Shown piece after piece: positions 9,815-31,137 of a DNA stretch of 31,137 nt. The notes beneath the pieces are model-generated. The model was not told the DNA's origin and made no database searches. It saw only the letters and a list, made by a program, of their open reading frames with translations. Location: the IMG/VR virus record IMGVR_UViG_3300011339_000426, positions 1-31,137 of that record. One strand, given 5' to 3'. Position numbers and translations under genes: made by a program. Origin of the DNA: a virus. Its lineage: Duplodnaviria > Caudoviricetes. The first letter of the stretch is position 1. The number at the start of each line of letters is the position of its first letter.

Positions 9815-10020
9815 TAGACTCGCCACACACGAGTTCCGTACCGCCCGTACTCACAACGGGCGCGTACTTCTATTTTGATTTTGAGAAACCTAGTGGCCGG
9901 TAGGAGTGCGTTTCGCACCTGCACGGGTGTTGCAGTGGTCGGCAAGAAGAACGAGCTACCAATAACAAACCGCTCCCAATGAAGAAAATACTCAACCCCA
10001 AACAGGGTGAGTACTCTCAT
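9811..10020 (-). CDS. Small conserved-type phage protein (C-terminal GxRVWR motif) downstream of the primase
   Basis: Start chosen at MRVLTLFG (10020) because the longer TTG-started ORF overlaps the primase 3' end; FVIGSSFFLP...YGTRVWRV pattern. Confidence 0.6.
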   Translation of the reverse strand: MRVLTLFGVEYFLHWERFVIGSSFFLPTTATPVQVRNALLPATRFLKIKIEVRARCEYGRYGTRVWRVY

Positions 10021-10063: not shown

Positions 10064-12913
10064 TTAAATGTCGGAAGCTTCCGCTTGCGCGAACGCCGTT
10101 TCGTCGATGCCAATTACGTCTCCATCAAAGATGTAGCAGCGTACTGCAATACCGCTAAGCCCCCCTACGGCTCCCGCACCAATCCGAGTAGGATGTGACT
10201 TGCCACCGTGCTTCAGATACCCCGCAGTGGTTAGCCGTGCCAAGCTATCACGCACGTCTACCTGTCTACCGGTAAAGTATTTGCGTAAATCAGCCACAGG
10301 GATTGCAAGCGTCTTGGTGTCAGGGTCGTACCGCATCACCAGTTTGCCCTTGGGTGTTAGCGCAGGTCTCTCAGGCAAGCCACCCTTGGGGGTATATGCA
10401 GCCACCATTGCGTTGTTGACGTTCTCGTTGATAAACGCGCCCAGTGTTTCTTGTGCCACAGTCATTGGGTTGCCAACGCTAGACAAGTTAGATGCAATGG
10501 ACTCCCGAACTACGCCCAGTGCGTATTGGTAGATACGTGTAATGTCGATGTCAATTAGACCAAGCTTTTTTGCAATCAAGGCACCCACAAACGCACATGT
10601 CAGCAAACAAGAATAGAAACGGTCAGTCTGATCTAGGTTCAGCGCCTTGTCCACCTTGGCTTGCATATCGGCAAGCAGCTTCATCACATGGTCGTGATTG
10701 TCAATGATGTACTGGATATAGATCGGGCCTGCCAAGCCGTAGTTAGAATTAAGCTTGCCAAACGTCTCGTCAATCTCGGCCTTGGTTGAGCCTGTGTATT
10801 TGTGGAACGCAATCTCAAGCACCCGACGAAGCTCACCGTCTGGCGTATTCTTAAGATTTTGCAAGGCATCTACAACAGAGGCGTTGCCCGATGACAGAGT
10901 AAAGTTACACCATGTTGTGTTGTTCACACGCAGCTTATTACTCTGCGATTCCATACGGTGCTTGCCTCGCCCTGAGGTAAACCCATAAGCGTAGTCCGAT
11001 AGAACGTCGTGCTTCTCGTTGGTAATCTCATCCACAGTAAACGCAATGCTGTTCATCATGCCAAGCAAGTGCATCTTGGAAGCGTACGTGTCATCCTGCT
11101 TCAGCAATAAGGTGTCAGGGTTGCCGAAGATAGAGTTGACCACCATCTGAGCCGTTGACTTGCCAGAGCCTGATCCGTTGTGTTTAAGGTGAATCAACGC
11201 GCCCTTCACGTTCTGCTTGGGGCCAATGAACTTTAGCAAGGGCGAGCCAAAGCCAAAGAACAAAGCCAGCGCATGCGTCTCAAGTCCGGGGCGGTCGTAG
11301 AAGTTAGCGATCTTGCTCCACTCCTCTAGCGTGCCAGTTGGTTTGAACTGCTCAGCCAACTCCCGTGTGCCGCTTGCAGGCGGTGCCAGTTTAGTACCCG
11401 CTGCCGTGTATTCCAACTCACCTACAACAAAGCCAAGCCCATCCGGTGTCCACCCCATTTGATTGCGGGTTCTGTTTGCAGCGTACTGCGACTGCAGTTT
11501 GCGTAGTGTCGAAGCAAAATAAGCCATGATTGCATCCAAGTGTTTTCCGTAAGCGACCACACCGTTTTTAATCAGTAGGTCACGCATCTTATCTTTAGTG
11601 AACAGCGTAGTCACCGGAGCGTAGAACCTGCGGATACCATCTTGCTTCATGTGCAAGTTCAGCCCCACCATCTCGCCTTCACCATTGCCATACTGGTCAG
11701 AGTCAAAGAACCTTTCCGTCAGGTATAGGTCGTACGGGTAAATTTCAACATCCTTTTCCTCACCATCAGGAGTACGTTCTTTCTTATACACACCGCCGTT
11801 AGCGCCCCGAAAGTATGGGAATGGGTATGCCGGTATCGACATTGTGAGTGCGGGTGCCGTCTCGTCCTCGGGCGTCTCAATGATGTACTGGTCGTCCTCG
11901 ACCACTGCCTGCTCTACAAACTTACCTAACAGAATAGGTGTAGAAATCTTTTGTGGGCAACCCTCGCACAATGATGGGTTGTTGTCCCGATACCACTCGC
12001 AGGTATACGGGCCTTTGGTCTCAGCAGCTTTAGCTTCAGTCGCCTCTGCCGAGTACTCGGGATGCCGTTTAGACATGGTATGGATAGCCGTGGGGCCGTC
12101 TTCACAACGCACAGCAATAGACAGCGCAGCCCTCCACAACGGCTCTTCCAGTGTAGGTGCTTGTTCAATGGCATGCTTCATCTGCGCACAGCCGTTACCG
12201 TTAATGCTACGGATAGCAATGCGCTTAAACGACCACTTAGGGTAGTCGCCAGTACCACCCATATCCTTAGACGTATCTTCCATGCCAAACTGTTTGGCAG
12301 CACTCAAGTCCATTGCAGGGGCGGGTAACGGCTCAATAAACTCAGCAAGGGATACGGGCGTACCCATTGCAATAATCTGTACGGGTCTCGAGGTTTCGTT
12401 TTTAAAGTTATGGGTGCCGGGTATGCGTAAGATGCGTGCAGCATCTGCAGTTACCGCAGGGTCAGCAAATAGTTTTTTCTGAGCGCACAAACGCTTCAGT
12501 GATTTTGCGTGTCGTATCCACTCGGATACGGGCACGTCTTCAGTCAAAGGCCAATAGACATGTAGACCACCACCTGAGTTAACAAGCGTTGGACTTGGGA
12601 GCTTCGTGTCAGCAACAAATATGGATAGGGCTTGGGCAGCAGCAGCTTGGTCAGCGTATGGCTTACCTGTACCGCAATCTAGGTCTAGAAAGAACGACCG
12701 CAGAAAGATGGCATTGTCCACCTTGCGACCTGAGTCATCTTCAAATGTGGCAAGCGCAAAATACGCATCCACGCCTTGAGAATCCATACCTGAGCCGACT
12801 GCCTCCACGTCTTCAATCGTCGCTTGAAACGACTGCTTGACGGCGTTTGACCGAATACCCACAGTGCAATACAAGCCCTGCGTAGGTAATACGGAGTTGA
12901 GAAAGTCAGTCAC
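10064..12913 (-). CDS. Primase-helicase: N-terminal AEP/RepB-like primase, Cys-rich linker domain, DUF927-type P-loop helicase
   Basis: FFLDLD, SGGGLHVYW and DAARILRIPGTHNFK primase motifs; GC...GPYTC...CEGC; Walker A GSGSGKST and Walker B FTVDE; GTG start with GAGG SD. Confidence 0.9.
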   Translation of the reverse strand: MTDFLNSVLPTQGLYCTVGIRSNAVKQSFQATIEDVEAVGSGMDSQGVDAYFALATFEDDSGRKVDNAIFLRSFFLDLDCGTGKPYADQAAAAQALSIFVADTKLPSPTLVNSGGGLHVYWPLTEDVPVSEWIRHAKSLKRLCAQKKLFADPAVTADAARILRIPGTHNFKNETSRPVQIIAMGTPVSLAEFIEPLPAPAMDLSAAKQFGMEDTSKDMGGTGDYPKWSFKRIAIRSINGNGCAQMKHAIEQAPTLEEPLWRAALSIAVRCEDGPTAIHTMSKRHPEYSAEATEAKAAETKGPYTCEWYRDNNPSLCEGCPQKISTPILLGKFVEQAVVEDDQYIIETPEDETAPALTMSIPAYPFPYFRGANGGVYKKERTPDGEEKDVEIYPYDLYLTERFFDSDQYGNGEGEMVGLNLHMKQDGIRRFYAPVTTLFTKDKMRDLLIKNGVVAYGKHLDAIMAYFASTLRKLQSQYAANRTRNQMGWTPDGLGFVVGELEYTAAGTKLAPPASGTRELAEQFKPTGTLEEWSKIANFYDRPGLETHALALFFGFGSPLLKFIGPKQNVKGALIHLKHNGSGSGKSTAQMVVNSIFGNPDTLLLKQDDTYASKMHLLGMMNSIAFTVDEITNEKHDVLSDYAYGFTSGRGKHRMESQSNKLRVNNTTWCNFTLSSGNASVVDALQNLKNTPDGELRRVLEIAFHKYTGSTKAEIDETFGKLNSNYGLAGPIYIQYIIDNHDHVMKLLADMQAKVDKALNLDQTDRFYSCLLTCAFVGALIAKKLGLIDIDITRIYQYALGVVRESIASNLSSVGNPMTVAQETLGAFINENVNNAMVAAYTPKGGLPERPALTPKGKLVMRYDPDTKTLAIPVADLRKYFTGRQVDVRDSLARLTTAGYLKHGGKSHPTRIGAGAVGGLSGIAVRCYIFDGDVIGIDETAFAQAEASDI

Positions 12914-14615: not shown

Positions 14616-14643
14616 ATTATACACTGTAAAATTTACGTGTCAA
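14616..14643 (-). promoter_or_regulatory. Sigma70-type promoter TTGACA-16-TATAAT
   Basis: Perfect hexamers on the minus strand, overlapping the helicase stop codon; 16-nt spacer. Confidence 0.8.
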
Positions 14644-19617: not shown

Positions 19618-20150
19618 TTTGATTTCCTTTTTAGTTTAGCTAAAGTTCGGTCAGTCATTTCACGCAAAATTCGTTTTTCGTGTTCAAACCAGTCACGCCC
19701 AGCTTTTGGTTTTTCTTGTTCCGTCCACAACACTTGTCCTTGCGCGGGGTTTTGCGGTGGTACCCCACCCGGCCACATCAACCGTGGGTCGTTGTATCCA
19801 CTAAGCAGGTTTGAGGCGATTTGATTCTTTGTGTTCATCATGCTTTGCCCCAACTGTTGCGAATATGCGCTACCTATCTTCGCCTGTTCTTCCGCACGAC
19901 GCTTCTCACCGTTAAAGATTTCATCCACTACAAACTCAGTCAGTTGTGGCTCCAGTATGTACTTGTCGTATGCAGCGCTCAGTGCCGTGTCATCACGGTC
20001 TGATAAGTCGTTGAAACCCACCGGAACTTTTCCCAATATGTGGTCGACAATTCGAGAAAACCTACCCTCAAATTTAAAGTCTTTTGGGTGTGACTGCATG
20101 CGCTCAATCAGCATGCGTGCCCCTTCGGAGCAGTTTAGTTCGTCAGCCAT
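19614..20150 (-). CDS. Hypothetical protein
   Basis: 178 aa; GGAG SD; overlaps its neighbours in operon fashion. Confidence 0.75.
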   Translation of the reverse strand: MADELNCSEGARMLIERMQSHPKDFKFEGRFSRIVDHILGKVPVGFNDLSDRDDTALSAAYDKYILEPQLTEFVVDEIFNGEKRRAEEQAKIGSAYSQQLGQSMMNTKNQIASNLLSGYNDPRLMWPGGVPPQNPAQGQVLWTEQEKPKAGRDWFEHEKRILREMTDRTLAKLKRKSK

Positions 20151-20442
20151 TCACACTCTCCTTTACGAATTCTTCTAGATGGACAAGGTTGGTCTCGTTC
20201 ACCACCCATGCGTCACCACCGGACTCGATGATGTTCTTGAGGTTCTTTTCTTGCAGGGCAGTTGTCGTACCTTTACCTGCCTTGGCTTCGATGGCAAAGA
20301 ACTTTCCGTTAAGACAACACAGAAAGTCAGGCACTCCACTGTTGCCGTAGCCAGTGCCGATAGGCATGGCGTAGTAGATGTTGTGGGCTTTCAAGATCGC
20401 TTTGATCTTGGCTTTAACTTTAGATTCGGGTGTTGCTGCCAT
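20143..20442 (-). CDS. VRR-NUC domain nuclease (putative Holliday junction resolvase)
   Basis: PESKV...GVPD...AIEAK...TALQ...GG motif set. Confidence 0.88.
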   Translation of the reverse strand: MAATPESKVKAKIKAILKAHNIYYAMPIGTGYGNSGVPDFLCCLNGKFFAIEAKAGKGTTTALQEKNLKNIIESGGDAWVVNETNLVHLEEFVKESVNG

Positions 20443-20908
20443 GTAGATTGGTACTCATAACTTGGTTGTAATCGAACCCCTCGTCGAGGCATTCACTGAG
20501 TAGCACTTCTTCATCCCCGTGTTTAACAACCGTGTTGTTGTATGTGTACACGCTACGTGGGACACGTATCAGCCCCGCCACAAATTCTTTACCTAGCCGT
20601 GTAGTACGCCAGATACCTGAGAACTTGGACTTGTGTGAGTCGTCTTTGCTCTTGCGTTCCACAAGGTTCCACCAGTGCAACGTAGCCAGTTGGTTAGATC
20701 GCACCAACCATTGGGGTCCAGTTATGGGAACGTTTACCCAACCATCCTCATCGCCAGTTTGATGGTTCAGCCACACCAAACCTTGTGCCATTGTTTTGTT
20801 AATGTTGCGGATGTATATCTTGCCCCACCGGTCACACACAGGGCAGTGCCCACCGTCACCGGCAATCGTGCGACCCCAAGCGTCTCGCATTATCATTCTA
20901 TTTTCCAT
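20420..20908 (-). CDS. Hypothetical protein with CxxC and a possible winged-helix region
   Basis: GAGGTGG SD before MENR at 20908; HCPVC; GIWRTTRLG. Confidence 0.7.
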   Translation of the reverse strand: MENRMIMRDAWGRTIAGDGGHCPVCDRWGKIYIRNINKTMAQGLVWLNHQTGDEDGWVNVPITGPQWLVRSNQLATLHWWNLVERKSKDDSHKSKFSGIWRTTRLGKEFVAGLIRVPRSVYTYNNTVVKHGDEEVLLSECLDEGFDYNQVMSTNLHGSNTRI

Positions 20909-21113
20909 TTGCCACCTCAATTAGTTTGGATAAGTAATGTTGGGCTTTCTTTAAGTCCTCGATACCGTTTTTGTTTTTCCAACGGGATATGTACTTCACC
21001 ACGTTACCTTCAAGATACCCAAGGTCGTTGGCAATGATGTAGTCCCATGGTTGTATGGTTTTGTCTTTGTAGTGTGACCCGCCAATTTGCGTGTCATCGG
21101 CTCTTTGAATCAT
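20898..21113 (-). CDS. DUF3310-family protein (T7 gp1.7-like nucleotide kinase domain)
   Basis: GGSHY...GNVVKYISRW..KNGIEDLKKAQHYL signature; AGGAG SD before ATG 21113. Confidence 0.88.
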   Translation of the reverse strand: MIQRADDTQIGGSHYKDKTIQPWDYIIANDLGYLEGNVVKYISRWKNKNGIEDLKKAQHYLSKLIEVANGK

Positions 21114-21285
21114 TTGGCTTCTCCTGTAGTAGTGCGTCATAGTACTGCTTGGGCATCGGGGCTTTCTTGGTGATGATGGTACGTAACCACTCGGCACCGC
21201 CAAGCTGATTAAAAATAATCCACTGCCGATCAGACATCCTTACTTGTCTTCCTATTAGTGGCTCGGGGGGCTTGGGGCGTGGCAT
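21094..21285 (-). CDS. Small ribbon-helix-helix-like DNA-binding protein
   Basis: MPRPK...RQVRMSDRQW...LGGAEWLR..I strand-helix-helix pattern. Confidence 0.55.
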   Translation of the reverse strand: MPRPKPPEPLIGRQVRMSDRQWIIFNQLGGAEWLRTIITKKAPMPKQYYDALLQEKPNDSKSR

Positions 21286-21541
21286 CGTCAGGTGTCCTTT
21301 CGTATTTGTTTGGTTGTCGTGCTTTTGAGTAAGTGCCAAATTGTTTATAGCCTAGACCTTCTTCGCTAGCGACCGTACCCTTTGCAACCTTGGCTCGGAA
21401 GTACGGGTCTTTCAGAAAGATGCTTGGGCGGTCAACTTGCGCTAACTCTTCCCAAGGGTTGAGTGCGCGTGGGGGGTTATTATCTTTCAAAACAAAACAT
21501 CCTCTATCAGGGTCATACCTTACTAACTCTAGCACTTTCAT
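21230..21541 (-). CDS. Hypothetical protein
   Basis: 103-aa ORF in the operon direction, overlapping both neighbours. Confidence 0.6.
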   Translation of the reverse strand: MKVLELVRYDPDRGCFVLKDNNPPRALNPWEELAQVDRPSIFLKDPYFRAKVAKGTVASEEGLGYKQFGTYSKARQPNKYERTPDDATPQAPRATNRKTSKDV

Positions 21542-21698
21542 CTTTCTTTTCCTTTCGGTATTTCAAAACTTCTTCCAGTAACTGTTCCATCTCATCTGCA
21601 GCCATCAAATGAAAAGGAGTAATCGGTTTGTGGCTTGCTATTGAACGCATCATGCCTATGGTTTGTCTTGCGGTTGTTTCACTAAGCGGTCTTTTCAT
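21513..21698 (-). CDS. Hypothetical protein
   Basis: AGGAGG SD before MKRPLSE at 21698; 61 aa. Confidence 0.65.
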   Translation of the reverse strand: MKRPLSETTARQTIGMMRSIASHKPITPFHLMAADEMEQLLEEVLKYRKEKKDESARVSKV

Positions 21699-21858
21699 TC
21701 TTGTCCTCCTGATACTTGCCCCACACTGCATCCAACATGTCTGCGGCTTTGTTGAGTTTATGGATCAGCGTTGAATGTTCGTGTGCATCTAGTCCCGATG
21801 CGTAACCACGCATCCATGCTGCCATTGTGAAGTACTGTAATTTATTTGGGTCAATCAT
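21682..21858 (-). CDS. Hypothetical 58-aa protein (not in ORF track)
   Basis: Hand translation MIDPNKLQYFTMAAWMRGYASGLDAHEHSTLIHKLNKAADMLDAVWGKYQEDKNEKTA*; fills the gap and is ATGA-coupled to the upstream ORF. Confidence 0.65.
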   Translation of the reverse strand: MIDPNKLQYFTMAAWMRGYASGLDAHEHSTLIHKLNKAADMLDAVWGKYQEDKNEKTA

Positions 21859-21950
21859 CTTGGTGCATCCTCATGGTTATCGGGGTTGAACTTAGGGACT
21901 CGGTTGCCCTTGTCCTTGGGGTTTGGGAATGGGGGAAAGGGCCAAGTCAT
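21855..21950 (-). CDS. 31-aa proline-rich peptide (not in ORF track)
   Basis: MTWPFPPFPNPKDKGNRVPKFNPDNHEDAPR*; ATGA overlaps at both ends. Confidence 0.6.
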   Translation of the reverse strand: MTWPFPPFPNPKDKGNRVPKFNPDNHEDAPR

Positions 21951-22162
21951 GCTTGTTTCTCCTGTGCCCACATGTGCAGTCTTAGTTCTGCGCTTTCCGC
22001 GTTAAAGTTGTTGCGTAGTTCTTGCAGATGCGCTTTGGCTTCGTCGTTAATTTTTTCACGCTCGGCAGAAGCGACAAGGGCGGCAAACTTGGCAAGGAAC
22101 TCAGGAGTAGCATCAAAGCCCCCTGCTTCTCGTGTCCACTGTTCAATGTCTTCTCTGTTCAT
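21947..22162 (-). CDS. Hypothetical protein
   Basis: MNREDI...FAALVASAERE; GGAGG SD; ATGA overlap with the upstream stop. Confidence 0.7.
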   Translation of the reverse strand: MNREDIEQWTREAGGFDATPEFLAKFAALVASAEREKINDEAKAHLQELRNNFNAESAELRLHMWAQEKQA

Positions 22163-22347
22163 TTTAATTTCCTCCATTGGGTTCGTGGTGCATCGGGTTG
22201 TTGAGTGCGTACTAAATAGAAATGAATCAGGTAGTCAAGCACTTGGTTGTATGTCATCTTGATGCCAGTATCCGCAGACAGTTGATCTCGTATCTTATCA
22301 ATGCCTTCGGACACCGGTATCGTGATGCGTTTAGCCGTGGGTTTCAT
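22159..22347 (-). CDS. Small protein, possible ribbon-helix-helix
   Basis: KRITIPVS...IRDQL...TYNQVLDYLI pattern; coupled on both sides. Confidence 0.6.
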   Translation of the reverse strand: MKPTAKRITIPVSEGIDKIRDQLSADTGIKMTYNQVLDYLIHFYLVRTQQPDAPRTQWRKLK

Positions 22348-22538
22348 TCACCCAACTCCTCAAAGATTTCGTTGAGTACAGTTTTGATTTGGCTAACCAT
22401 CTCAGCTTTTGTATAAGGTGCAGACATAACCATCTTGATACTTGCCAACGCCTTATACATAGCTTGCCCCTTCAATGCGAACAGTAACGCATCCTCATCG
22501 TCGGGGTATTCAAACTCCAGTATGGCTTTTGATCTCAT
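22344..22538 (-). CDS. Hypothetical protein
   Basis: 64 aa; KAILEFEYPDDE; ATGA-coupled. Confidence 0.65.
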   Translation of the reverse strand: MRSKAILEFEYPDDEDALLFALKGQAMYKALASIKMVMSAPYTKAEMVSQIKTVLNEIFEELGE

Positions 22539-23071
22539 TTACCCAAGCCACCGAAGTACAGGTGCAAGCGACGATACAACTCGTGGGCATCATTAAGGCT
22601 AACCGTATCCATGATGACGTCGATGCTTGTACGAATAGGGGTGTGGTCAAGTACCAATGCAGCCAATCCCAATGACTCTGCGCTAGGCTCATTTGTTATA
22701 GAAGTTCTAACCTTAGAAGTTTTTGGTTTCTTTACCTTAGCTTCTCGCTTAGCAATTGTCTTAGATGACTTGATGGGTGTGTACTCTTTACCATTGGGGC
22801 GTAGCAAACCGTCGCTATCCTTATAGATATGCCCTTGGCGTAGCATCTGTCCAAGCAAAGATGACACAGATGATTTCTTATGCCCTTGCGCTACAAGGAT
22901 TCGGATTGCATCGTTTCGAGCGCAACCGGAGTTGTCTCGCACAAAGTTAAATGTTGCTTGCGTTACGTTGTTTGTAGGTTTGAACACTGTTGTTTCCTTA
23001 GTTGTTTCAGTTGTTTCGGGTTGTTCCCAAGCATGCAATATCTTTTGCATTTCTGTTTTTAAATCAGGCAT
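22535..23071 (-). CDS. Putative winged-helix DNA-binding protein with a Lys-rich linker
   Basis: GAGGA SD before MPDLK at 23071; TFNFVRDNSG...SSVSSLLGQMLRQGHIYKDSDG wHTH-like pattern. Confidence 0.6.
   Translation of the reverse strand: MPDLKTEMQKILHAWEQPETTETTKETTVFKPTNNVTQATFNFVRDNSGCARNDAIRILVAQGHKKSSVSSLLGQMLRQGHIYKDSDGLLRPNGKEYTPIKSSKTIAKREAKVKKPKTSKVRTSITNEPSAESLGLAALVLDHTPIRTSIDVIMDTVSLNDAHELYRRLHLYFGGLGK
22705..22718. repeat. Palindrome copy 1 (intragenic, CC centre on + strand)
   Basis: AAG TTCTAACCTTAGAA GTT at 22702-22721. Confidence 0.85.
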
Positions 23072-23237
23072 CGTCATCCTCGAATAGGTTAAGTTGTTTA
23101 GGGTCAGGCATGGTGCGTGATAAATCCTCCATGTCACGCAACCGCATCTCCAACCTTTCAGATAAGACTTTGATTAGACCCGACTGCCCATCGGCTACTC
23201 GGATTAGTTCCTCATCGGTCAAGTTGTCATAATTCAT
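23064..23237 (-). CDS. 57-aa protein with a QLNLF beta-clamp-binding-like motif (not in ORF track)
   Basis: MNYDNLTDEELIRVADGQSGLIKVLSERLEMRLRDMEDLSRTMPDPKQLNLFEDDDA*; GGAG SD and ATGA overlap. Confidence 0.7.
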   Translation of the reverse strand: MNYDNLTDEELIRVADGQSGLIKVLSERLEMRLRDMEDLSRTMPDPKQLNLFEDDDA

Positions 23238-23596
23238 TTAAGCTCCATAAAGTTAAGTAAGTTTCCATCGTCGTCAATAGTGAACCATACGATGTTGTCA
23301 GGGGGAGGCACCATCACCCGCTTGAGATGCCCACCCACCGTTGCCACATCCCTGATTCTCTCTAGCCAATCAGGTAGGTCTGTCACCAGTCCACGAGATG
23401 CTTCCTCGTGTCCGTCACGCCATTTCTTTAGCGTGTAGTCAAGCCCACGTTCTTCGTATCTACATTCGTACATAGGATTGTCTTTGTGGTATCCAAGTTT
23501 ATGTTCTAGCATTCGAAGGGCGTCTGACTTCGCTCGCCCATGCCTGTCTGCTACTTCCATAATCTCAGTTACCATCGCCTTCACTTTCCCCATCAT
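23234..23596 (-). CDS. Hypothetical protein
   Basis: Start at MMGKVK (GGGGGA SD) preferred over 23629. Confidence 0.6.
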   Translation of the reverse strand: MMGKVKAMVTEIMEVADRHGRAKSDALRMLEHKLGYHKDNPMYECRYEERGLDYTLKKWRDGHEEASRGLVTDLPDWLERIRDVATVGGHLKRVMVPPPDNIVWFTIDDDGNLLNFMELK

Positions 23597-24491
23597 GTAT
23601 CCCCCAATCAAATGCACCAAGGATTTCATCCACCTTGATCTTGGTTAAAGCACGAGTGCTATCTTCTTCACGCAATTCTTTAGGTGTTATGCCAGACAAT
23701 ACCTCTTCAAGCTTACGTGAAGCTTTCGTTAACGCAGGATCGTTAGTAATGTTCATGACTTGCAACAACTCACACAAGTCAACGGCATTGGTCACCGTCG
23801 TGTCGTGGAACGTACGCTTCTTGCCATCCTCATCGACAGTCAAGCGGTCACTCAACTTACTGATAGCGTTATACAAACGAGTCCATGAGTCTTGGTTCGC
23901 TGCTTTAATCTTAGAGTCAAGCTTGGCTTCGTAGTCTGCGATCAACTGGCGTTGTACCTCGCTCTCAATGTCTAACCTAAAGTCACCGCCAGTAGGCAAG
24001 GGAGTGAACGAAGTCTCCATGCGGAAACGCTGAGCTACCTTGCCCCTGCTTGGGTACTCGCCACGATCAAACAATGTGCCAAGTTGAAACGCTGCCCCTG
24101 CCACGAGTGTCTCGTACTTGTCCAAGAACGCATCGACCAAACGATTGAACTCGGTGTTGTACTTACCCATAACCTTCTGATAGTCGAGCAGGGCTGCAGT
24201 GGGCAACAGTCTTGCACCTTGGTCATTCCATGGGAGTGTGAGTTTGTAATGCTCGGCTCGGGCACGGGCTTGGAACTTGGTGATAGCTTCCAACTCTTTG
24301 CACTCAGCAAACAAGTTCTTGTACACCGACGCTGCTTTCTTGGAGCCTGACCCCTTGGCATTGGTGACCTCGGCTTGCGTACTCTTGTCTTGCTTGCGAC
24401 CCGAGTAGACTGCGATGTTTAAGTCCACCATCATGGCGGAGCGAGCGATGCCTGCAATAGGCTTTTCTGTTTCGATTGTGTAGTAGTTCAT
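23565..24491 (-). CDS. DUF3150-like helical protein associated with AAA/VWA modules
   Basis: SAMMVDLNI..YSGRKQD, TLPW...GARLLP, LFDRGEYP and MNITNDP segments; context downstream of DUF2201 and AAA genes. Confidence 0.6.
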   Translation of the reverse strand: MNYYTIETEKPIAGIARSAMMVDLNIAVYSGRKQDKSTQAEVTNAKGSGSKKAASVYKNLFAECKELEAITKFQARARAEHYKLTLPWNDQGARLLPTAALLDYQKVMGKYNTEFNRLVDAFLDKYETLVAGAAFQLGTLFDRGEYPSRGKVAQRFRMETSFTPLPTGGDFRLDIESEVQRQLIADYEAKLDSKIKAANQDSWTRLYNAISKLSDRLTVDEDGKKRTFHDTTVTNAVDLCELLQVMNITNDPALTKASRKLEEVLSGITPKELREEDSTRALTKIKVDEILGAFDWGIHDGESEGDGN

Positions 24492-24496
24492 GATAG

Positions 24497-24510
24497 TTCT
24501 AAGGTTAGAA
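24497..24510. repeat. Palindrome copy 2 (gene junction)
   Basis: TTCTAAGGTTAGAA between the stop at 24514-24516 and ATG 24491. Confidence 0.95.
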
Positions 24511-24513
24511 GTT

Positions 24514-24786
24514 TTAGCGTTTGATGATGACAGTCTCGTCTAGCTTTGCAGCCAGTTTGATTGTGTCGATGTAGTCTTGGTTCACTGGTGCTACAGTGAA
24601 TAGCTCGTGTGTTACGACCGGTTTGATAGCCGGTACGTATGCGTTCTGATACCCTTGCGAGCCTTGGTTGTTGCCCACATGAGTTTCGGTTAGGTGTTCA
24701 GCAAACGACAAAGTATCTGTAAGAACTTGAAGTTGCCCTACATCTAATAAAACGTGATGCCCGTTGATTGTTAGTTTGAATTTCAT
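24514..24786 (-). CDS. Hypothetical protein
   Basis: 90 aa; ATGA-coupled to the upstream gene. Confidence 0.7.
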   Translation of the reverse strand: MKFKLTINGHHVLLDVGQLQVLTDTLSFAEHLTETHVGNNQGSQGYQNAYVPAIKPVVTHELFTVAPVNQDYIDTIKLAAKLDETVIIKR

Positions 24787-25151
24787 AAGTTCACCTGTAT
24801 GGTTCGTTCTACGTACATGTAGTGTTCGGCATCGCCTGTGCTATCGGACTCAACATCGTTATCATCTTCACCAATGCGTAGGAACTCGTATTCGTATTCA
24901 AGATCACGTACCTCTGTTAAAAACTTAGTGAACAAATCCACGTCGGGAAACGAGTCGTACCACTTGACTGAGTTTGCAGCAAACTTAAGCACGCGATGAT
25001 GATCATCCCATGTAAAGAAGTCGTCGCCCCACGCCTCAAACACATCCTTGAACGTAGTGTTCATTAGCGTCTTAAGCTTGTCGTATTCCAACAAGTTGTG
25101 TTCACCCCCGAGGGGGTAAATGAGTGCCATTACATCTGATCGATATCCCAT
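24783..25151 (-). CDS. Acidic hypothetical phage protein (MGYRSDV N-terminus)
   Basis: GGAG SD supplied by the repeat; MGYRSDV...VKWY...FLRIGED. Confidence 0.8.
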   Translation of the reverse strand: MGYRSDVMALIYPLGGEHNLLEYDKLKTLMNTTFKDVFEAWGDDFFTWDDHHRVLKFAANSVKWYDSFPDVDLFTKFLTEVRDLEYEYEFLRIGEDDNDVESDSTGDAEHYMYVERTIQVNL

Positions 25152-25155
25152 AATA

Positions 25156-25183
25156 TTCTCCAAAAGTTCTAAGGTTAGAAGTT
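25156..25183. repeat. Palindrome copy 3 within the 28-bp direct repeat (includes SD)
   Basis: TTCTCCAAAAGTTCTAAGGTTAGAAGTT exact. Confidence 0.97.
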
Positions 25184-26362
25184 TTAAACTTCGACACGAA
25201 TCGTTGTGCCGAATGGTGCAACTACATCGGATGTGATAGCCCACAAGGTAGGCACATCGGTGTTACCCCAATCACCTACATAGCCATCGGTAAACTGCAC
25301 GATAGCGTCAGGCTTGATATTGTTGTCACGCAAGTAGTCGAACAAGACCTTGCCGTCTGTACCACCACCGCCCTTGGGTTGCATGTTGGCTACGGCAAAC
25401 TGACCTTCCTCAAATGTCTGATGCCCTGCTACCTCAGTGTCCCAATAGATAACGTGTACCTTGGTTGGCTTAACATCCTCGATGATGGTCTTGATGTTGG
25501 ACACGAACGCAGTCATCTCATCGCCACCGAAACATGACCCCGACGTGTCGAACCCGATGACAAGCTCTGTCATAGTAGTCCCCACCATAGAAGGCATGTA
25601 AACGTCGTAGCTCAAGAACCTACGATTGGGCTTACGCCAAGATGATTCGTCACGACCTGCGCATGTCTCAGTAACGAAGTCACGCAAGACTTTCTTCCAG
25701 TCGATCTTGGGTTGCATCAAGTCACCGAACACACCATCCTCACCGCCTGCACCCTTGCCCTGCATCTTGCGACGAATGATCTCGCCCTGACGAATGGCTC
25801 GTTGAATCTCATTGCCACGCTCGGCATCAGTAGCAGGGTCACCGCTTGTTGCGTTTTCCCAATCGTGAGAGTCAATACCACCCTCGCCCTCACCATCGCC
25901 ACCTTCACCACCCCCGCCTTCCTCTTGCTCTTGCTTGAGGTGTTCGAAGATTTGCTTGACTGACCACCCACGATACTTAGCATCAGGTTGCACACCCAAC
26001 TCGGGCATCTTGATGAACCCTTCGCCTGCATCTGTATCGACTAAGGATAAGTTAACGAAGTGATCTGCTGCGATGTTAGCCAACTGAGCATCCTCGTCAT
26101 GCAATGCAGACCATACTTGCAAGTGACGATAGGCTTTGTGTTGTGCCTCATGCAATACGAGGAAGCGTAACTCGGGGTCAGTCTTCATGTGTTGCTCAAT
26201 GAAGCTAGGGTTGTAGATAACATCCCAACCGTTAGTAGCTGCGGTAGGTACGTCGTCATTTACCTTGACCTTGCCACATGCGAGGATACTGCCGTATGCG
26301 CAGAACACCTTGTGTTGCATGATAGCGATGTGTGCTTTCTTGATTCGATCTTGTACGTTCAT
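25184..26362 (-). CDS. DUF2201-family protein: HExxH metallopeptidase-like N-terminus plus VWA-like C-terminus
   Basis: TAATNG, LHEAQH, NIAAD; acidic Gly linker; MIDAS DTSGS, GGGT and FTDG. Confidence 0.9.
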   Translation of the reverse strand: MNVQDRIKKAHIAIMQHKVFCAYGSILACGKVKVNDDVPTAATNGWDVIYNPSFIEQHMKTDPELRFLVLHEAQHKAYRHLQVWSALHDEDAQLANIAADHFVNLSLVDTDAGEGFIKMPELGVQPDAKYRGWSVKQIFEHLKQEQEEGGGGEGGDGEGEGGIDSHDWENATSGDPATDAERGNEIQRAIRQGEIIRRKMQGKGAGGEDGVFGDLMQPKIDWKKVLRDFVTETCAGRDESSWRKPNRRFLSYDVYMPSMVGTTMTELVIGFDTSGSCFGGDEMTAFVSNIKTIIEDVKPTKVHVIYWDTEVAGHQTFEEGQFAVANMQPKGGGGTDGKVLFDYLRDNNIKPDAIVQFTDGYVGDWGNTDVPTLWAITSDVVAPFGTTIRVEV

Positions 26363-26367
26363 TTGAT

Positions 26368-26395
26368 TTCTCCAAAAGTTCTAAGGTTAGAAGTT
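26368..26395. repeat. Palindrome copy 4 within the 28-bp direct repeat
   Basis: Exact 28-mer; contains the TAA stop (26387-26389) of the upstream gene. Confidence 0.97.
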
Positions 26396-26986
26396 ATGAT
26401 CCATTGGGATGAGGAACTCTCGGTTCTCATCTAGTAGCGAAGCTATGCGCTCAGCCATTGCTATCTCGTCGGAGGTTCGCAGTGTAAGGAACAGATCAAC
26501 TACCTGTTCCCGTAGTGGTTTGTTGCGGATGATGAGTGAGTAGTGATTACTACCACCCACCTCTTTGATGCGTTGCTTGTTGGTATCAAAGGTTTCGTCA
26601 ACACGTTTTACAAACTCTTCGTATGTGATCTTGTAGTAATTCTTTTTCTCTTCCTCGAAGTTCATCTTAGTCAATGCGCAGTCAGCTTCGAGCAGACCAG
26701 TCATCTCATCCTTCATAGCCTGAGGTATAACCCGTGGTGATTGAAAAGATACATACGGTCCATGCTCGGGCTTAGCAAATGTCACAGGCGTTTCACCCGC
26801 TAGCTTAAAGATAAGTCCACGCACTTGTTTAGTCTTGCTTGACCACCCACCGCTATGCTTGCCTGACGCAATGCTCTTGCGAGCAAGGTTGCGTAGCGAC
26901 TTAGTTAAACGAGTTGGATTAAAGTATGCCGTGGTGACTACACCGGGGGACTGCAGTTGTCTTGCTAATGCGTACATGTTGCTCAT
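26387..26986 (-). CDS. Hypothetical protein
   Basis: AAGGA SD before MSNMY at 26986; ATGA-coupled; 199 aa. Confidence 0.75.
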   Translation of the reverse strand: MSNMYALARQLQSPGVVTTAYFNPTRLTKSLRNLARKSIASGKHSGGWSSKTKQVRGLIFKLAGETPVTFAKPEHGPYVSFQSPRVIPQAMKDEMTGLLEADCALTKMNFEEEKKNYYKITYEEFVKRVDETFDTNKQRIKEVGGSNHYSLIIRNKPLREQVVDLFLTLRTSDEIAMAERIASLLDENREFLIPMDHNF

Positions 26987-27159
26987 GATGGTTTCCTTAG
27001 TTTGTTTAGTAATGCGGTTTGTAAATTCCATGCGTCATTTGACTGCACATGGTTAGGTAGTGGGCGTTGGTATGCCTTGCCGATACGATTGGGATGCCAA
27101 TCTTTTTTGATGACGACGATGGTCTGCCCGTTAGATGTTCGTTCTACGATAAGCATCAT
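26983..27159 (-). CDS. Hypothetical 58-aa protein
   Basis: GGAG SD before MMLIVE at 27159; coupled on both sides. Confidence 0.65.
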   Translation of the reverse strand: MMLIVERTSNGQTIVVIKKDWHPNRIGKAYQRPLPNHVQSNDAWNLQTALLNKLRKPS

Positions 27160-27245
27160 GGTCTCCAGTAGTAGAGGTCGAGGACTAGCACAATAATGGC
27201 TAGGGCTAAGATCAAACGCTCGAAGCGTTCCCAAGGTGTAAACAT
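27156..27245 (-). CDS. 29-aa single-pass membrane peptide (not in ORF track)
   Basis: MFTPWERFERLILALAIIVLVLDLYYWRP*; stop overlaps the next ATG (ATGA). Confidence 0.65.
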   Translation of the reverse strand: MFTPWERFERLILALAIIVLVLDLYYWRP

Positions 27246-27249
27246 AATG

Positions 27250-27263
27250 TTCTAACCTTAGAA
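27250..27263. repeat. Palindrome copy 5 (flipped centre, gene junction)
   Basis: TTCTAACCTTAGAA on + strand; contains the AAA gene stop (27258-27260). Confidence 0.9.
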
Positions 27264-28325
27264 GAATTTACCAAGCTTGGCTGCTTGTGTTGTGAACTTA
27301 CGGCTGTGACATGCCATGCCTACCTTGGCTTTGTTGGATGCCAATGAGGTAATGAACAAGGCGTGTGCCTCGAACGATTCGTTAGCCATGCGGTCAGAGT
27401 AGTCCATCACTGCGTCGATAGTCTTAGCATCGACACGGGCTGCCAACATAAAGGACAAGATAAACAATGCACCGGCACTGCTTGGAACCTTGGCTTTGTA
27501 TGGTTCTCTGACGATGTTCTCGAACAAGGGCAACTGATCTGCCAAGTGAATGAGTGCATCCATATCCCTAGCTGCTGCTTCGCCAACAGTACCCGCCAAT
27601 GCAGGCAACAAGGCATCACCCAATACATGACGCATCTTGATAAGGTTAGATGCTTTCTCGAGTGAACGAGGCGAGCAGTATGCCTTCACGTTGCCCGTCA
27701 ATGGGTTGAAGATGTAGGGGTTCTTAGCCTTGGGGTCGAGGTCGGTGTAGCAGTCGAATATCTGTGGGTACTGCTTGGCAAATGCCATCACCTCGGGGGC
27801 TATGTCGTTGTCGGATGCCCACTCGAGCCATTGCTCGACAGTTGGGTTGGCTAGGTTCACGACAGTCATGCGGTTATAGGCATGGGCAGGGATGTTGTCA
27901 CCCACGCCATCTGTATCTAGGTTGGTCGTTGCAAATACAATCGAGCCAGTCGGTAGAAGCACATCACCTACACGATGCTCGAGGACAGTCGGCAACAACA
28001 TGTTCATCACTGGTCGCAGTGATTTACCCAACTCGTCGAGCATTAGCGCAACAGGGCGGGTTTGATTTCGACCGATACCGAAGCGCACATTGGGTGCGTA
28101 CGATGTGGTCATGTTCTCTCGGTCAATGACAGGCATAGCCAAGTCACCGAGGTCTAAGTTTGCACAGTCGATGTAGCACATCTGATAATCAGGTAGCTCT
28201 CTACCTAGTGTCGCAAGGATGGACGATTTGCCCACACCCGGCTGACCACGCAGTAGGACTGTGTTTGTTGTACCCACATTACGAATGAGGGTCGTTGCTT
28301 GTTTGAGATTGATAGACAAGTTCAT
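27258..28325 (-). CDS. MoxR-like AAA+ ATPase
   Basis: Walker A GQPGVGKS, Walker B LMLDE, ATTN sensor 1, NR arginine finger, SPRS sensor 2. Confidence 0.9.
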   Translation of the reverse strand: MNLSINLKQATTLIRNVGTTNTVLLRGQPGVGKSSILATLGRELPDYQMCYIDCANLDLGDLAMPVIDRENMTTSYAPNVRFGIGRNQTRPVALMLDELGKSLRPVMNMLLPTVLEHRVGDVLLPTGSIVFATTNLDTDGVGDNIPAHAYNRMTVVNLANPTVEQWLEWASDNDIAPEVMAFAKQYPQIFDCYTDLDPKAKNPYIFNPLTGNVKAYCSPRSLEKASNLIKMRHVLGDALLPALAGTVGEAAARDMDALIHLADQLPLFENIVREPYKAKVPSSAGALFILSFMLAARVDAKTIDAVMDYSDRMANESFEAHALFITSLASNKAKVGMACHSRKFTTQAAKLGKFF

Positions 28326-28348
28326 TTTGATTTCCAGTTGATTAAAAG

Positions 28349-28362
28349 TTCTAAGGTTAGAA
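28349..28362. repeat. Palindrome copy 6 (intergenic, upstream of AAA gene)
   Basis: AAAAG TTCTAAGGTTAGAA GTTT. Confidence 0.95.
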
Positions 28363-28389
28363 GTTTACTTAAATAGGCTTTCGCCATGC

Positions 28390-29148
28390 TTACAAGACAT
28401 AGGTCTCAGAGCGAGACACAATGTACATGTTCTTTTTGCAAGCAGCCATGATGGTTGCCCAACACGCTTTTGCATTTGATTTCTCTACATACTGGTACTG
28501 CGGGTATGCGTACTCACGTTGGAATTTACTGCGAGCGATCACCATCTTCCATGTGTCGGCTCGGCTGTTGTCAGTTAGTGCATCGGGTAGTTTTACACCA
28601 AACATCCCGTAGTTATCTTTCTCCATATCATCGGGTGTAGCTACGGCATACAGTAGCTTGAACGCATCGGTGAACCCTGACTCTTTTAAGTCATCGGCAA
28701 ATGCTTTGGTCTCGACTTTATCGACACGCTTTTGCTCGAACGCTCGAAGTGGCGTGATGACTTCGCCTTGGTCATTGAGTGTGATGCCGTCATAGTACGA
28801 ATAGAGTTTAACGCCCACACGAAGCACAGGTTGTGAGTAGCTCAAGATGCTACGTTTGCCCATGCCCACGCCCACACCCTCAAAGAAACCAAACGCTTCA
28901 TTGAGGCGGATGATCGTGGTGTTGTGTGTGTAGTATCCGTTGGTGTCAATCTTCACATCGCCATTGGGGTAAGCGGTAATGATGTCGGTACTCCACATGC
29001 GGATGCGCATGGTGTCGTCGTTACCCTTGACTACACGAAAGTGGCACATGCTACGTTGATGCGCATTGGCAGGGGCATCGCCCTTGTTCTTGCCACGCTT
29101 ATACATGTGACGTGTCAAGTGCATTGAAAGTTTTGTGTACATGTTCAT
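28390..29148 (-). CDS. Hypothetical early protein
   Basis: 252 aa; SD supplied by the 28-bp repeat. Confidence 0.8.
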   Translation of the reverse strand: MNMYTKLSMHLTRHMYKRGKNKGDAPANAHQRSMCHFRVVKGNDDTMRIRMWSTDIITAYPNGDVKIDTNGYYTHNTTIIRLNEAFGFFEGVGVGMGKRSILSYSQPVLRVGVKLYSYYDGITLNDQGEVITPLRAFEQKRVDKVETKAFADDLKESGFTDAFKLLYAVATPDDMEKDNYGMFGVKLPDALTDNSRADTWKMVIARSKFQREYAYPQYQYVEKSNAKACWATIMAACKKNMYIVSRSETYVL

Positions 29149-29153
29149 TGTGT

Positions 29154-29181
29154 TTCTCCAAAAGTTCTAAGGTTAGAAGTT
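29154..29181. repeat. Palindrome copy 7 within the 28-bp direct repeat
   Basis: Exact 28-mer overlapping the upstream stop at 29180-29182. Confidence 0.97.
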
Positions 29182-29398
29182 ATCTGCCACCCTTGTGGCT
29201 TGAGTTGAGGTTGAGTAAGAGAGTGCGGTCAGTCACTACGATGTAGTTGGACTTAGGCATAGGCACGATGGTGTGTTTAACCTTGCGTGCTTCGCTTTCA
29301 CCACATGCTAGGCATGTGGGTCGTGTCATGTGTTTGCGTTGGGGTTCGACCCTCACGGCATAACAACAAGTGCAAATCGGTAAGTGATAGTGGCTCAT
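29180..29398 (-). CDS. Small C4 zinc-finger protein (DksA/TraR-like spacing)
   Basis: CTCC...VEPQR......TCLACGE. Confidence 0.6.
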   Translation of the reverse strand: MSHYHLPICTCCYAVRVEPQRKHMTRPTCLACGESEARKVKHTIVPMPKSNYIVVTDRTLLLNLNSSHKGGR

Positions 29399-29501
29399 GA
29401 TGTGTCCTTACAATTTGTCTAGCATCTATACGGCTTGCGAACCAACGGCTAAGCCGTTGACATTCGTACCCTTCCATCTCATCTTGAAGTAGGCGGTTCA
29501 T
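29298..29501 (-). CDS. Hypothetical protein
   Basis: ATGA-coupled to the upstream gene; 3' end overlaps the next gene by about 100 nt. Confidence 0.5.
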   Translation of the reverse strand: MNRLLQDEMEGYECQRLSRWFASRIDARQIVRTHHEPLSLTDLHLLLCREGRTPTQTHDTTHMPSMW

Positions 29502-29737
29502 TCGATCACCACCACACGACGAATGGGTTCGTCTTCGTCATCTTCAGGCTCGTCGAGGTCACGCTCATACAAGCGGTCGGTCTGGTGATACTCAGACTTC
29601 TGCACCGTACCTTGAAAGGTTCGGGCTACCCTTGGGGCTAGCGTTGTACGCCAGTAGTCGCCTGCCCCGTATGCCATGTGTACTTCGGCATCACCGTCGT
29701 AGCACTCCAGTTCTGCGATTAGTTCGGACACTTTCAT
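29498..29737 (-). CDS. Hypothetical acidic protein (MKVSELI N-terminus)
   Basis: GGAG SD; 79 aa. Confidence 0.75.
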   Translation of the reverse strand: MKVSELIAELECYDGDAEVHMAYGAGDYWRTTLAPRVARTFQGTVQKSEYHQTDRLYERDLDEPEDDEDEPIRRVVVIE

Positions 29738-29763
29738 ATCATTCTCCAGTTATGGTTAGGTGT

Positions 29764-29979
29764 TTAGATAAAGTCAATAGCGTATTCGTTACCAGCTTCG
29801 CTTAGCTGCAGTTCACACAACACGACACTCTTGAGTGCCTGCATCATGCGGTAAACATCAAGTGCTTTAAATTGGTCTGCGTTCTTGATGAATAGTGTGC
29901 CGTATGCGAAGTACGCATTGTCGGCAATGTCAGAGTTAACTTCCTCGATTCGTTTTAGTACAACGGTTTCAAGTCCCAT
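29764..29979 (-). CDS. Hypothetical 71-aa protein, first gene after the long leader
   Basis: Start MGLETVV at 29979, directly after the repeat-borne GGAG. Confidence 0.7.
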   Translation of the reverse strand: MGLETVVLKRIEEVNSDIADNAYFAYGTLFIKNADQFKALDVYRMMQALKSVVLCELQLSEAGNEYAIDFI

Positions 29980-29983
29980 GGTT

Positions 29984-30011
29984 TTCTCCAAAAGTTCTAA
30001 GGTTAGAAGTT
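29984..30011. repeat. Palindrome copy 8 within the 28-bp direct repeat
   Basis: Exact 28-mer. Confidence 0.97.
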
Positions 30012-30496
30012 TGGTGCGGTATGCACCCAAGAGGGGACAGTATCCCCTCCCAGTTGAATACAACTTGTTGACACGGCTGATGCCGTGAGTAGTGCGTCGC
30101 TTTTGATTTGGCTTTTTTACTACGATAGGGTTTGTCGTTCACGTATATCCTGACCCGTGTCAGTCCGTGTTCCCGTGGTTGTCTTAGCGGTAGCATCCCG
30201 AGGTGCTACATAAACTCCACTTAGCAGGCATGTATGTTTGCATACATAACCCGCACCCATTTAGGTAGTGTGCGTATGCTTTGCATTTAGGTGTTCTATG
30301 TCGCTGACACTTGCCTATAACCCTACTAACCTAAATACTGGGGCTTGTACCCAACGTCTATTCAAACGAGGAAGAATTCATGACCTGCACTTTGGGGAGT
30401 CTTAGTGCCTCTATTTTTGGCGGGTCTGCATCTATCGAGCTTCTGTTATGTAAACAGCGACGGCTTGCGGTGATTGTGTGTGGTTGCTAGTCACAA

Positions 30497-30516
30497 AAGT
30501 TCTAAGGTTAGAACTT
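30497..30516. repeat. Palindrome copy 9, fully symmetric 9-2-9 version
   Basis: AAGTTCTAA-GG-TTAGAACTT, about 100 bp downstream of the strong promoter. Confidence 0.95.
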
Positions 30517-30539
30517 ACACAAAAACCTCTGTGTATATA

Positions 30540-30552
30540 TTGTTAAAGAACG
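30540..30552 (-). promoter_or_regulatory. boxA-like antitermination element
   Basis: Minus strand CGTTCTTTAACAA versus the rrn boxA consensus TGCTCTTTAACA; preceded by hairpins. Confidence 0.6.
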
Positions 30553-30614
30553 ATGCGACCGATAGGTGTAGGTGGTGCGCTACAAGCCGAGGCGTTACTC
30601 GACTTGATAAATCA

Positions 30615-30643
30615 ATTATAACAGATTATAGGTATCTTGTCAA
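30615..30643 (-). promoter_or_regulatory. Strong sigma70 early promoter TTGACA-17-TATAAT with extended -10
   Basis: Minus strand TTGACA AGATACCTATAATCTGT TATAAT; TGn present. Confidence 0.9.
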
Positions 30644-30648
30644 GCGTT

Positions 30649-31137
30649 TTATAGTCCGTCTACCTCATCCCAGTCCTTCAAGATTTCGGCGGTTTTTGCC
30701 ACGACTTCGGGGTTTCGCTTGGGGTCGTTCTTCTTTCCCTGTGCGACGATCTGATGCACTCTGATCTCTGAGATGCCGTAGTCTTGGGCGAGTTGTTTTC
30801 TTTTGACCCCGAGCATCGCCCTGCGGTATACATCTGCATCTCGTTCGGCACGAAGTTTCTTCATGGGGATCATGGCTTCGACTCGTGGGGCTTTCTCGTC
30901 TAATACTTTGATGATGGCTTTCTTGATGGCGGAGTGTTGACTCATGCCGTGGGAGACTGCATAACCTTGGGCGATGTTGAGGTGCTTGGTTCCGATCTTG
31001 AGCCAGAGTTGTAGTGCTGCAACTGCAGCCCCTTCTAAGCCATCTTCGTGGGTTTGTGCCAAGTCGTCTGCAACGGAGAGGGGCAGTTCAATGGTGAGGG
31101 AGTGGGTTTGGAAGCTTGCGGTGGTGGAGGTTGTCAT
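30649..31137 (-). CDS. Putative transcriptional regulator with a Mor/C-like C-terminal HTH (start at window edge, may extend)
   Basis: ERDADVYRRAMLGVKRKQLAQDYGISEIRVHQIV matches the Mor-type HTH pattern. Confidence 0.7.
   Translation of the reverse strand: MTTSTTASFQTHSLTIELPLSVADDLAQTHEDGLEGAAVAALQLWLKIGTKHLNIAQGYAVSHGMSQHSAIKKAIIKVLDEKAPRVEAMIPMKKLRAERDADVYRRAMLGVKRKQLAQDYGISEIRVHQIVAQGKKNDPKRNPEVVAKTAEILKDWDEVDGL

Follow-up and report, generated by a model that had tools for sequence, protein, structure and literature searches.

The window analysed here is the whole 31,137-nucleotide stretch of the virus record IMGVR_UViG_3300011339_000426, a fragment of an HTVC023P-like phage genome of about 61–68 kb, and its early genes are interspersed with a short dyad. 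A motif scan for the core TTCTAA-NN-TTAGAA returned exactly nine exact matches, none of them left of 22.7 kb and all at the positions listed in the original prediction, and one further match with two mismatches at 23504. Shuffled sequences contained on average 0.97 matches at up to two mismatches, and none of 100 shuffles reached ten. The explanation that we favor, with a probability of about 0.6, is that the repeat is a dispersed early-region operator array of the first early protein of the phage, e178, whose gene lies just past the window end and which would be likely to repress early transcription.

Read in the early direction, the first copy of the window is the most symmetric one (30500..30513), at about 95 nt past the predicted start site of the second early promoter P2 (30615..30643, minus strand). 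P2, whose function is predicted, matches the sigma70 consensus at 12 of 12 positions, is conserved in relatives and was the single promoter found in a minus-strand search from 20000 to 31137. The next copy (29995..30008) is followed by an ATG 15 nt further on with GGAG in between, and copy 29165..29178 lies 1 nt past the stop of a 72-aa Zn-ribbon-like gene and 16 nt ahead of a 252-aa gene. The gene of an AAA ATPase (27258..28325, minus strand; phrog_1297), whose best cultured matches share 24–28% identity and are partly annotated as N4 gp24-like, starts 23 nt after copy 28349..28362, and its stop codon is contained in copy 27250..27263, the centre of which has the minority orientation. Copy 26379..26392 contains the stop of a 214-aa gene and precedes by 16 nt the gene of a DUF2201 metallopeptidase-like and VWA-like protein (25184..26362, minus strand), and copy 25167..25180 is found 3 nt past the stop of the latter. 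The two remaining copies lie 3 nt past a stop and 5 nt ahead of a 308-aa gene (24497..24510) and within the coding sequence of a winged-helix-like gene (wHTH; 22535..23137, minus strand) with a weak match to a MarR-family PHROG (E 0.002), which holds the last copy (22705..22718).

This layout bears out much of what had been noticed before, since four copies share an identical 28-mer (starting at 25156, 26368, 29154 and 29984) and five of the nine contain the stop codon of the upstream gene or lie within 3 nt of it. The proposed unit of stop codon, repeat, ribosome-binding site and start codon does not apply to copy 22705 inside the wHTH frame, and GGAG is missing at copies 24497 and 27250, which are followed by an ATG 5 and 4 nt further on, respectively. 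A single fully symmetric copy had been placed next to the early promoter; only copy 30500 indeed extends the symmetry by three more base pairs, but its centre is still GG and the adjoining promoter is the second early one. A symmetry test describes the core as a 14-bp dyad in which only the flanks and the centre are polar, and the centre varies within a genome. A 29-codon hydrophobic open reading frame (ORF; 27156–27245, minus strand), shorter than the cut-off of the ORF list, begins 4 nt after the 27250 copy, and comparable ORF starts follow the equivalent copy at the ATPase stop in many relatives.

The nine copies are not the whole array. A longer record (G005), which is 99.96–100% identical to the window and extends beyond its right end at 31137, holds 12 exact copies and one copy with a single mismatch. 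The additional exact copies are located at G005 positions 10299, 10348 and 10808, the e178 gene (178 aa) at 9316–9852, and a degenerate copy at 9193, 13 bp upstream of the -35 box of the promoter P1. The order in the early direction is thus the degenerate copy, 13 bp, P1 (TTGACA), e178 followed by a short gene, then non-coding DNA that contains three copies, a Mor-like helix-turn-helix (HTH) gene (window 30649..31137, minus strand; Pfam Mor, E 0.0016, below the cut-off), P2, the copy about 95 nt further on and then copies at most junctions up to the wHTH gene. Beyond the early region, G005 encodes the small and large terminase, a probable portal and then the capsid protein.

The array is confined to 9–14 kb in complete and near-complete relatives, with 10–13 copies per genome that are restricted to the early region. 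All 11 loose matches of the complete genome G002 fall inside 11 kb (10 of 12 in G001), and the 12 matches each of G016 and G017 fall inside 14 and 12.6 kb. Among 29 loci that were retrieved with the ATPase, one of which is G005, 28 carry a TAA-N2-TTA array and the remaining one has a variant with a 3-bp spacer. The relatives hold the array at equivalent gene junctions but respell both of its arms genome-wide. One outer spelling is used per genome on both arms (TTC, TTA, TCT, TTT, ATC/GTC or a mix of TTC and TTA), and the spacer ranges from 2 to 4 bp between lineages, the 3- and 4-bp forms belonging to other lineages. The spelling does not track ATPase relatedness, as loci with 97% identity are of the TTA type and loci with 88–90% identity of the TTC type. 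Copies at a distance of at least 5 kb from e178 mostly keep the type of their genome. Wherever the wHTH gene possesses its internal copy, this copy has the spelling of its genome (17 of 17 genes; 20 were examined, the window being counted twice through G005), and its respelling alters the encoded residues. Because the copies change together although their flanks are unrelated and one of them is constrained by coding, we infer selection by one reader.

The flanks show a distinct polarity on the coding strand, with C at -8 in 30 and at +8 in 32 of 33 TTC copies, and in mixed genomes the arrangement of TTC on the left and TTA on the right was found 25 times versus two for the reverse. This polarity could reflect a direction-dependent roadblock or the shared ancestry of the copies. 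Two local deviations from the genome type were observed. One example is locus L043, a TTT-type genome with a single copy of the TTC/TTA type (position 12515) in front of its DUF2201 gene, as if the module had arrived with a foreign site. Another example is the copy at the ATPase stop in TTA genomes (L026, 1600–1621; L027, 11063–11084; and others), which consists of three half-sites with an 8-bp period and retains a TTC half-site that contains the stop codon.

The protein whose divergence follows that of the motif is e178. In a screen of 45 ORF clusters, real and spurious, that were represented by two or more genomes in every one of three pure spelling types, e178 exhibited the largest gap between within-type and between-type identity (0.86 vs. 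0.46), compared with 0.61/0.52 for the Mor-like protein, 0.72/0.65 for wHTH, 0.77/0.80 for the ribbon-helix-helix protein RHH81 and 0.91/0.88 for the small terminase. We collected 158 e178 loci, 86 of which could be typed (at least two downstream copies and a near-full protein), corresponding to 68 distinct proteins; eight distant ATC/GTC proteins and an untyped one were dropped, and 59 were analysed. The columns that covary most strongly with the spelling are 92, 165, 88, 168, 89 and 85, and the spacing of residues 85, 88, 89 and 92 corresponds to one face of the predicted helix 84–100. A glutamine at position 92 is present in all eight TTA proteins and in none of the 51 others, and Q or M at position 89 occurs in 8/8 TTA, 9/9 mixed and 3/9 TTC proteins but in 0/33 of the TTT/TCT types. 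Nine spacer-variant loci outside the covariation tests, near-duplicates among them, all fit an association of Q or N at position 89 with C and of T, V or I with T when read by eye.

The same helix emerges from prediction and phylogeny. Sequence windows starting at residues 85–89 predict the type from proteins of less than 70% identity with a balanced accuracy of up to 0.65 (five classes) and 0.78 (four classes), compared with 0.24 and 0.28 for the median e178 window and 0.26 and 0.30 for the rest of the protein. In matched locus sets this helix is again the best e178 window (0.85–0.91), ahead of the best values for the Mor-like protein (0.73), the small terminase (0.54) and the large terminase (0.64). 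A tree calculated without the helix requires nine type changes; TTA arises in two clades far apart from each other, Q89 and Q92 being present in each, and one TTC protein stands beside two TTT proteins from which it differs at positions 85, 89 and 92. None of the wHTH, RHH, HTH and Mor-like proteins of the window tracks the spelling of the motif. The Mor-like protein is not favored as binder, given that both its identity gap and its best window remain below those of e178, and the DNA-binding part of wHTH does not follow the spelling either. One option of the original prediction, a distributed operator or roadblock array, is thereby supported as far as a protein-binding array is concerned, but the reader has to be moved from the HTH, RHH and wHTH proteins of the window to e178, because e178 tracks the spelling and they do not. 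Overall, e178 probably binds the array.

The AlphaFold2 model of e178 (pLDDT 84.4) predicts a helix-loop-helix (64–78 and 84–100) and a second helical domain behind a flexible linker. The homodimer score is 0.79 versus 0.00 for the best of three controls, on a scale whose mark is reached by 20 of 30 solved homodimers and one of 23 single chains, and the dimer runs show a contact agreement of at least 86% with a pLDDT of at least 75. The predicted interface comprises helix 3–47 and residues 64–82; residues 84–92 are not named in it. The protein is accordingly predicted to dimerize through its antiparallel N-terminal helix, and the model would leave helix 84–100 of each subunit outside the interface, one per TTCTAA half-site. 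A fold search placed no HTH protein among the top fold matches and assigned no fold. The ParB N-terminal domain PF02195 was not found in e178.

The position of the sites relative to the two early promoters is largely fixed. A site lies 13–14 bp upstream of the -35 box of P1 in 42 of 56 non-redundant loci (47 with a site, nine without a site of that form) and is centred near -55 in most loci. Of the 19 loci with a detectable P2, 16 have a copy behind it at +91 to +112 and the other three at +66/67, and no site was found directly upstream of P2. A test of site placement located many sites at promoters and in short intergenic spaces. A scenario compatible with this geometry is that the host sigma70 RNA polymerase starts at P1, so that e178 would be made first, and that an e178 dimer would bind each dyad, ahead of the -35 box of P1, in the leader about 95 nt past P2 and at the majority of gene boundaries. 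Accumulating e178 may then damp early transcription, slowing initiation at P1 and acting as a roadblock to elongation behind P2 and at the junctions, where the sites would be situated mainly because coding sequence is spared there. Provided that e178 binds, repression or a roadblock is its likely role.

Several observations weigh against an e178 operator. For e178, the cluster screen relies on ten pure-type loci, five of which are close kin, and the screen left out the genes of the virion half of the genome. Position 89 carries T or S in five of nine TTC proteins, which precludes a one-residue rule, and columns 165 and 168, both off the helix, rank within the top five for covariation. The four-class grouping and the helix were picked after the alignment had been seen, and an independent-pairs test on the tree was not significant with at most four pairs, too few to reach significance. 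Sequence searches with the protein gave no match in Pfam, PHROG or PDB, which leaves a DNA-binding fold without homology support. Finally, a site 13–14 bp upstream of a -35 box could equally serve activation.

The last point leads to an activator or anti-terminator, with e178 boosting P1 and sustaining RNA polymerase through the early operon. Activators are known to occupy a position such as the centre near -55; P2 matches the sigma70 consensus perfectly with no site found directly upstream, and most sites lie within the transcribed region, which makes this role quite improbable. Somewhat less remote, though still unlikely, is a structural role in which e178 would organise, protect or pull in the first-entering 10–14 kb or mark them for replication or packaging. 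The even spacing of 0.5–1.8 kb, the limitation of the array to the region adjoining the terminase genes, the distance of most sites from promoters and the second helical domain predicted for e178 are all consistent with it, but the fixed geometry to two promoters and the strand polarity of the flanks speak against such a role, and ParB is missing from four of four complete or near-complete relatives. The reader might also be a host protein or an unscreened phage protein, with e178 tracking the spelling through linkage or ancestry only. The e178 gene adjoins the first copies, the tree test is under-powered and the virion-region genes were left out of the screen; the signal nonetheless peaks in one helix instead of along the whole gene, the neighbors on both sides of e178 track the spelling worse, distant copies mostly keep their type, and a 22-mer has no exact match in the species genomes of the Genome Taxonomy Database (GTDB), all of which renders another reader quite improbable as well.

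Two further options had been raised in the original prediction. Recombination joints that turn the intervals into exchangeable cassettes, comparable to the PeSL elements of T4-like phages, would account for several variable genes that arrive with their own copy, for the 28 identical base pairs common to four copies and for the foreign-type copy in the TTT genome, and the excerpted text on Cluster O phages describes one such indel at a site (PMC4351075). The expected enrichment of gene gain and loss at the repeat was not found, since the 285 homology breakpoints in 25 genomes amount to 4.46 per motif site versus 4.47 per motif-less junction. Other insertions come without a copy, all maps show the same core gene order between copies, and the respelling of the coding copy with its unrelated flanks is left unexplained. 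The spacer of 2–4 bp and the variable centre contrast with the fixed central overlap of site-specific recombination, and tyrosine and serine recombinases (PF00589, PF00239) were found in none of four relatives at 96–100% completeness, the genome of the window itself being a fragment. Cassette exchange as the main function is therefore very unlikely; homologous exchange at the copies may occasionally occur as a by-product. A hairpin in the RNA, gating translation or processing beside the ribosome site, has the adjacent Shine–Dalgarno sequences, the strand-polar flanks and the usually symmetric respelling in its favor. The stem reaches only -1.8 kcal/mol in six of the nine copies (no shuffle control), GGAG is outside the 5-bp stem, and the arms are mismatched in 27 of 57 copies of seven mixed genomes and in 19 of 39 copies of four ATC/GTC genomes, with pairing near independent assortment (Fisher p 0.064 and 0.75, respectively). 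Together with copies in non-coding DNA upstream of a promoter and the lack of an Rfam match, this leaves a gating hairpin with hardly any plausibility.

As interpreted here, the dyad array would work like the stoperators of Cluster A phages and the dyads of Cluster O phages, with a new protein family. The Cluster A systems (L5, TipsytheTRex) likewise combine numerous short sites, located in promoter regions and in the small gaps between genes, with one phage protein of about 180 aa, and motif and protein diverge together with intermediate specificities. The L5 repressor gp71 comprises an HTH and a Stoperator domain, and binding in that system stops transcription and confers superinfection immunity. 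According to the excerpted sources, Cluster A sites lack symmetry, measure 13 bp, occur across the whole genome and are occupied by a monomeric protein; the phages are temperate and possess integrase or parABS (PMC9283540, PMC6550527). In contrast, the phages studied here possess a 14-bp dyad in the early region only and a predicted dimer, and no integrase, resolvase or ParB was found in four relatives. For Cluster O, the excerpt of PMC4351075 reports more than 30 genome-wide copies of the 17-bp dyad TGTTCGG-N3-CCGAACA, with invariant arms and no tie to start codons, and a dimeric binder that is predicted but not named. Both arrays consist of dispersed dyads whose centre varies; many copies are intergenic and some coding, the sites show few indels, no integrase or parAB is found and the binder is predicted to be dimeric. 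The array described here differs by its 10–13 copies, its early location, its different sequence, the respelling between relatives and a named candidate binder. The six motif spellings were found in no paper of the searched literature, which excludes most subscription journals.

Other known systems are more distant. The excerpt of PMC2839356 characterizes PeSLs of T4-like phages as a sigma70 promoter plus a terminator stem-loop that form mini-circles. They resemble the dyads as repeated elements between early genes of a variable region. Unlike PeSLs, the dyads have neither a promoter per copy nor an excess of breakpoints, nor a terminator per copy (-1.8 to -2.9 kcal/mol in eight of nine copies, none among the terminator-like matches), and PeSL identity is ruled out by the missing promoter and stable hairpin. 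In length and in its outer bases, the OB core TTTAGCGGCTAAA of RK2 is similar to the 3-bp-spacer variants of our array. The palindromic OB sites, near and far from promoters, are likewise read by one dimer. This dimer, KorB, is a plasmid-encoded CTP clamp of the ParB family (PMC11790492). No ParB domain (PF02195) is present in e178 or in the four relatives at 96–100% completeness, in which ParA was not searched for. The second looser analogue besides KorB is the temperate Streptomyces phage phiC31, whose repressor c binds dispersed conserved inverted repeats. The phiC31 repressor family is a weak ESM Atlas neighbor of e178 (0.79), a value within the range of shuffled proteins, and no alignment supports kinship.

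The repression by e178 that we favor may serve timed lytic feedback, the maintenance of a non-integrated state or the exclusion of later-arriving kin, and by analogy with the excerpted account of Cluster A immunity (PMC6550527) the repeated respelling would favor some interaction between phages. Repeated joint respelling of a dozen sites is a behavior seen in immunity systems, but a search of the phages studied here revealed no lysogeny genes. A tentative and rather doubtful extension is that e178 and the dyad mediate superinfection immunity in phages without integration or ParB: the first phage to enter a cell would make e178 at once and silence later-arriving phages of identical spelling in their early region, thereby driving the split into TTC, TTA, TCT, TTT and ATC/GTC groups with mixed intermediates. 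The protein would then represent a new DNA-binding family with a recognition code at four helix positions, and the cultured, distantly related phages Pra-JY27, MinM2 and Pag-Yong1 might possess a parallel array of another sequence. An action between co-infecting phages would bear on competition among abundant aquatic phages; mere feedback on early genes would make e178 a new regulator family in a familiar design. The comparative data name a candidate binder and provide residue-level testable predictions for orthogonal pairs of proteins and sites.

Pra-JY27 (PP438419.1; L217, L218) carries 25 copies of the different dyad GTTCA-N3-TGAAC in its early and late regions. Many of them show the layout of stop codon, site, ribosome-binding site and start codon; the initial 12.1 kb of the genome contain 12 copies, and one copy precedes gene 1 by about 60 nt. 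Gene 1 does not align with e178. Pra-JY27, MinM2 and Pag-Yong1 share an identical gene 1, all comprise 65,014 bp and have been deposited on three different cyanobacterial hosts. Their capsid protein is 75% identical to that of G005, compared with 62–66% for HTVC023P, HTVC027P and DSL-LC04 (22 records matched).

Further observations concern the surroundings of the array. The Mor-like protein exists in two N-terminal types (about 35–40% vs. 70–86% identity) that are unrelated to the dyad type. The non-coding DNA that separates e178 from the Mor-like gene (G005 10375–10790) harbors a second dyad family, GTTAC-N3-GTAAC, with four copies and one longer-spacer copy accompanied by AG and AT runs; TGTTAC/GTAACA clusters occupy the equivalent place in G001 and G004, and the region may serve as an origin or packaging signal. 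A third sigma70 promoter, near the consensus (window ~14616–14643, minus strand), is situated downstream of the helicase gene and retained in G001, G002 and G004, and the following 400 nt are devoid of the dyad. All 30 bins of the stretch were covered in three riverine metagenome runs. The window also encodes a DNA polymerase A, a SNF2 helicase, a DUF927 primase and an LPD38 virion protein, and tandem coding repeats of 12 nt (window 1641–1840) and 21 nt (5912–6087) are located in the virion protein genes for the 683-aa and the 2112-aa protein, respectively.

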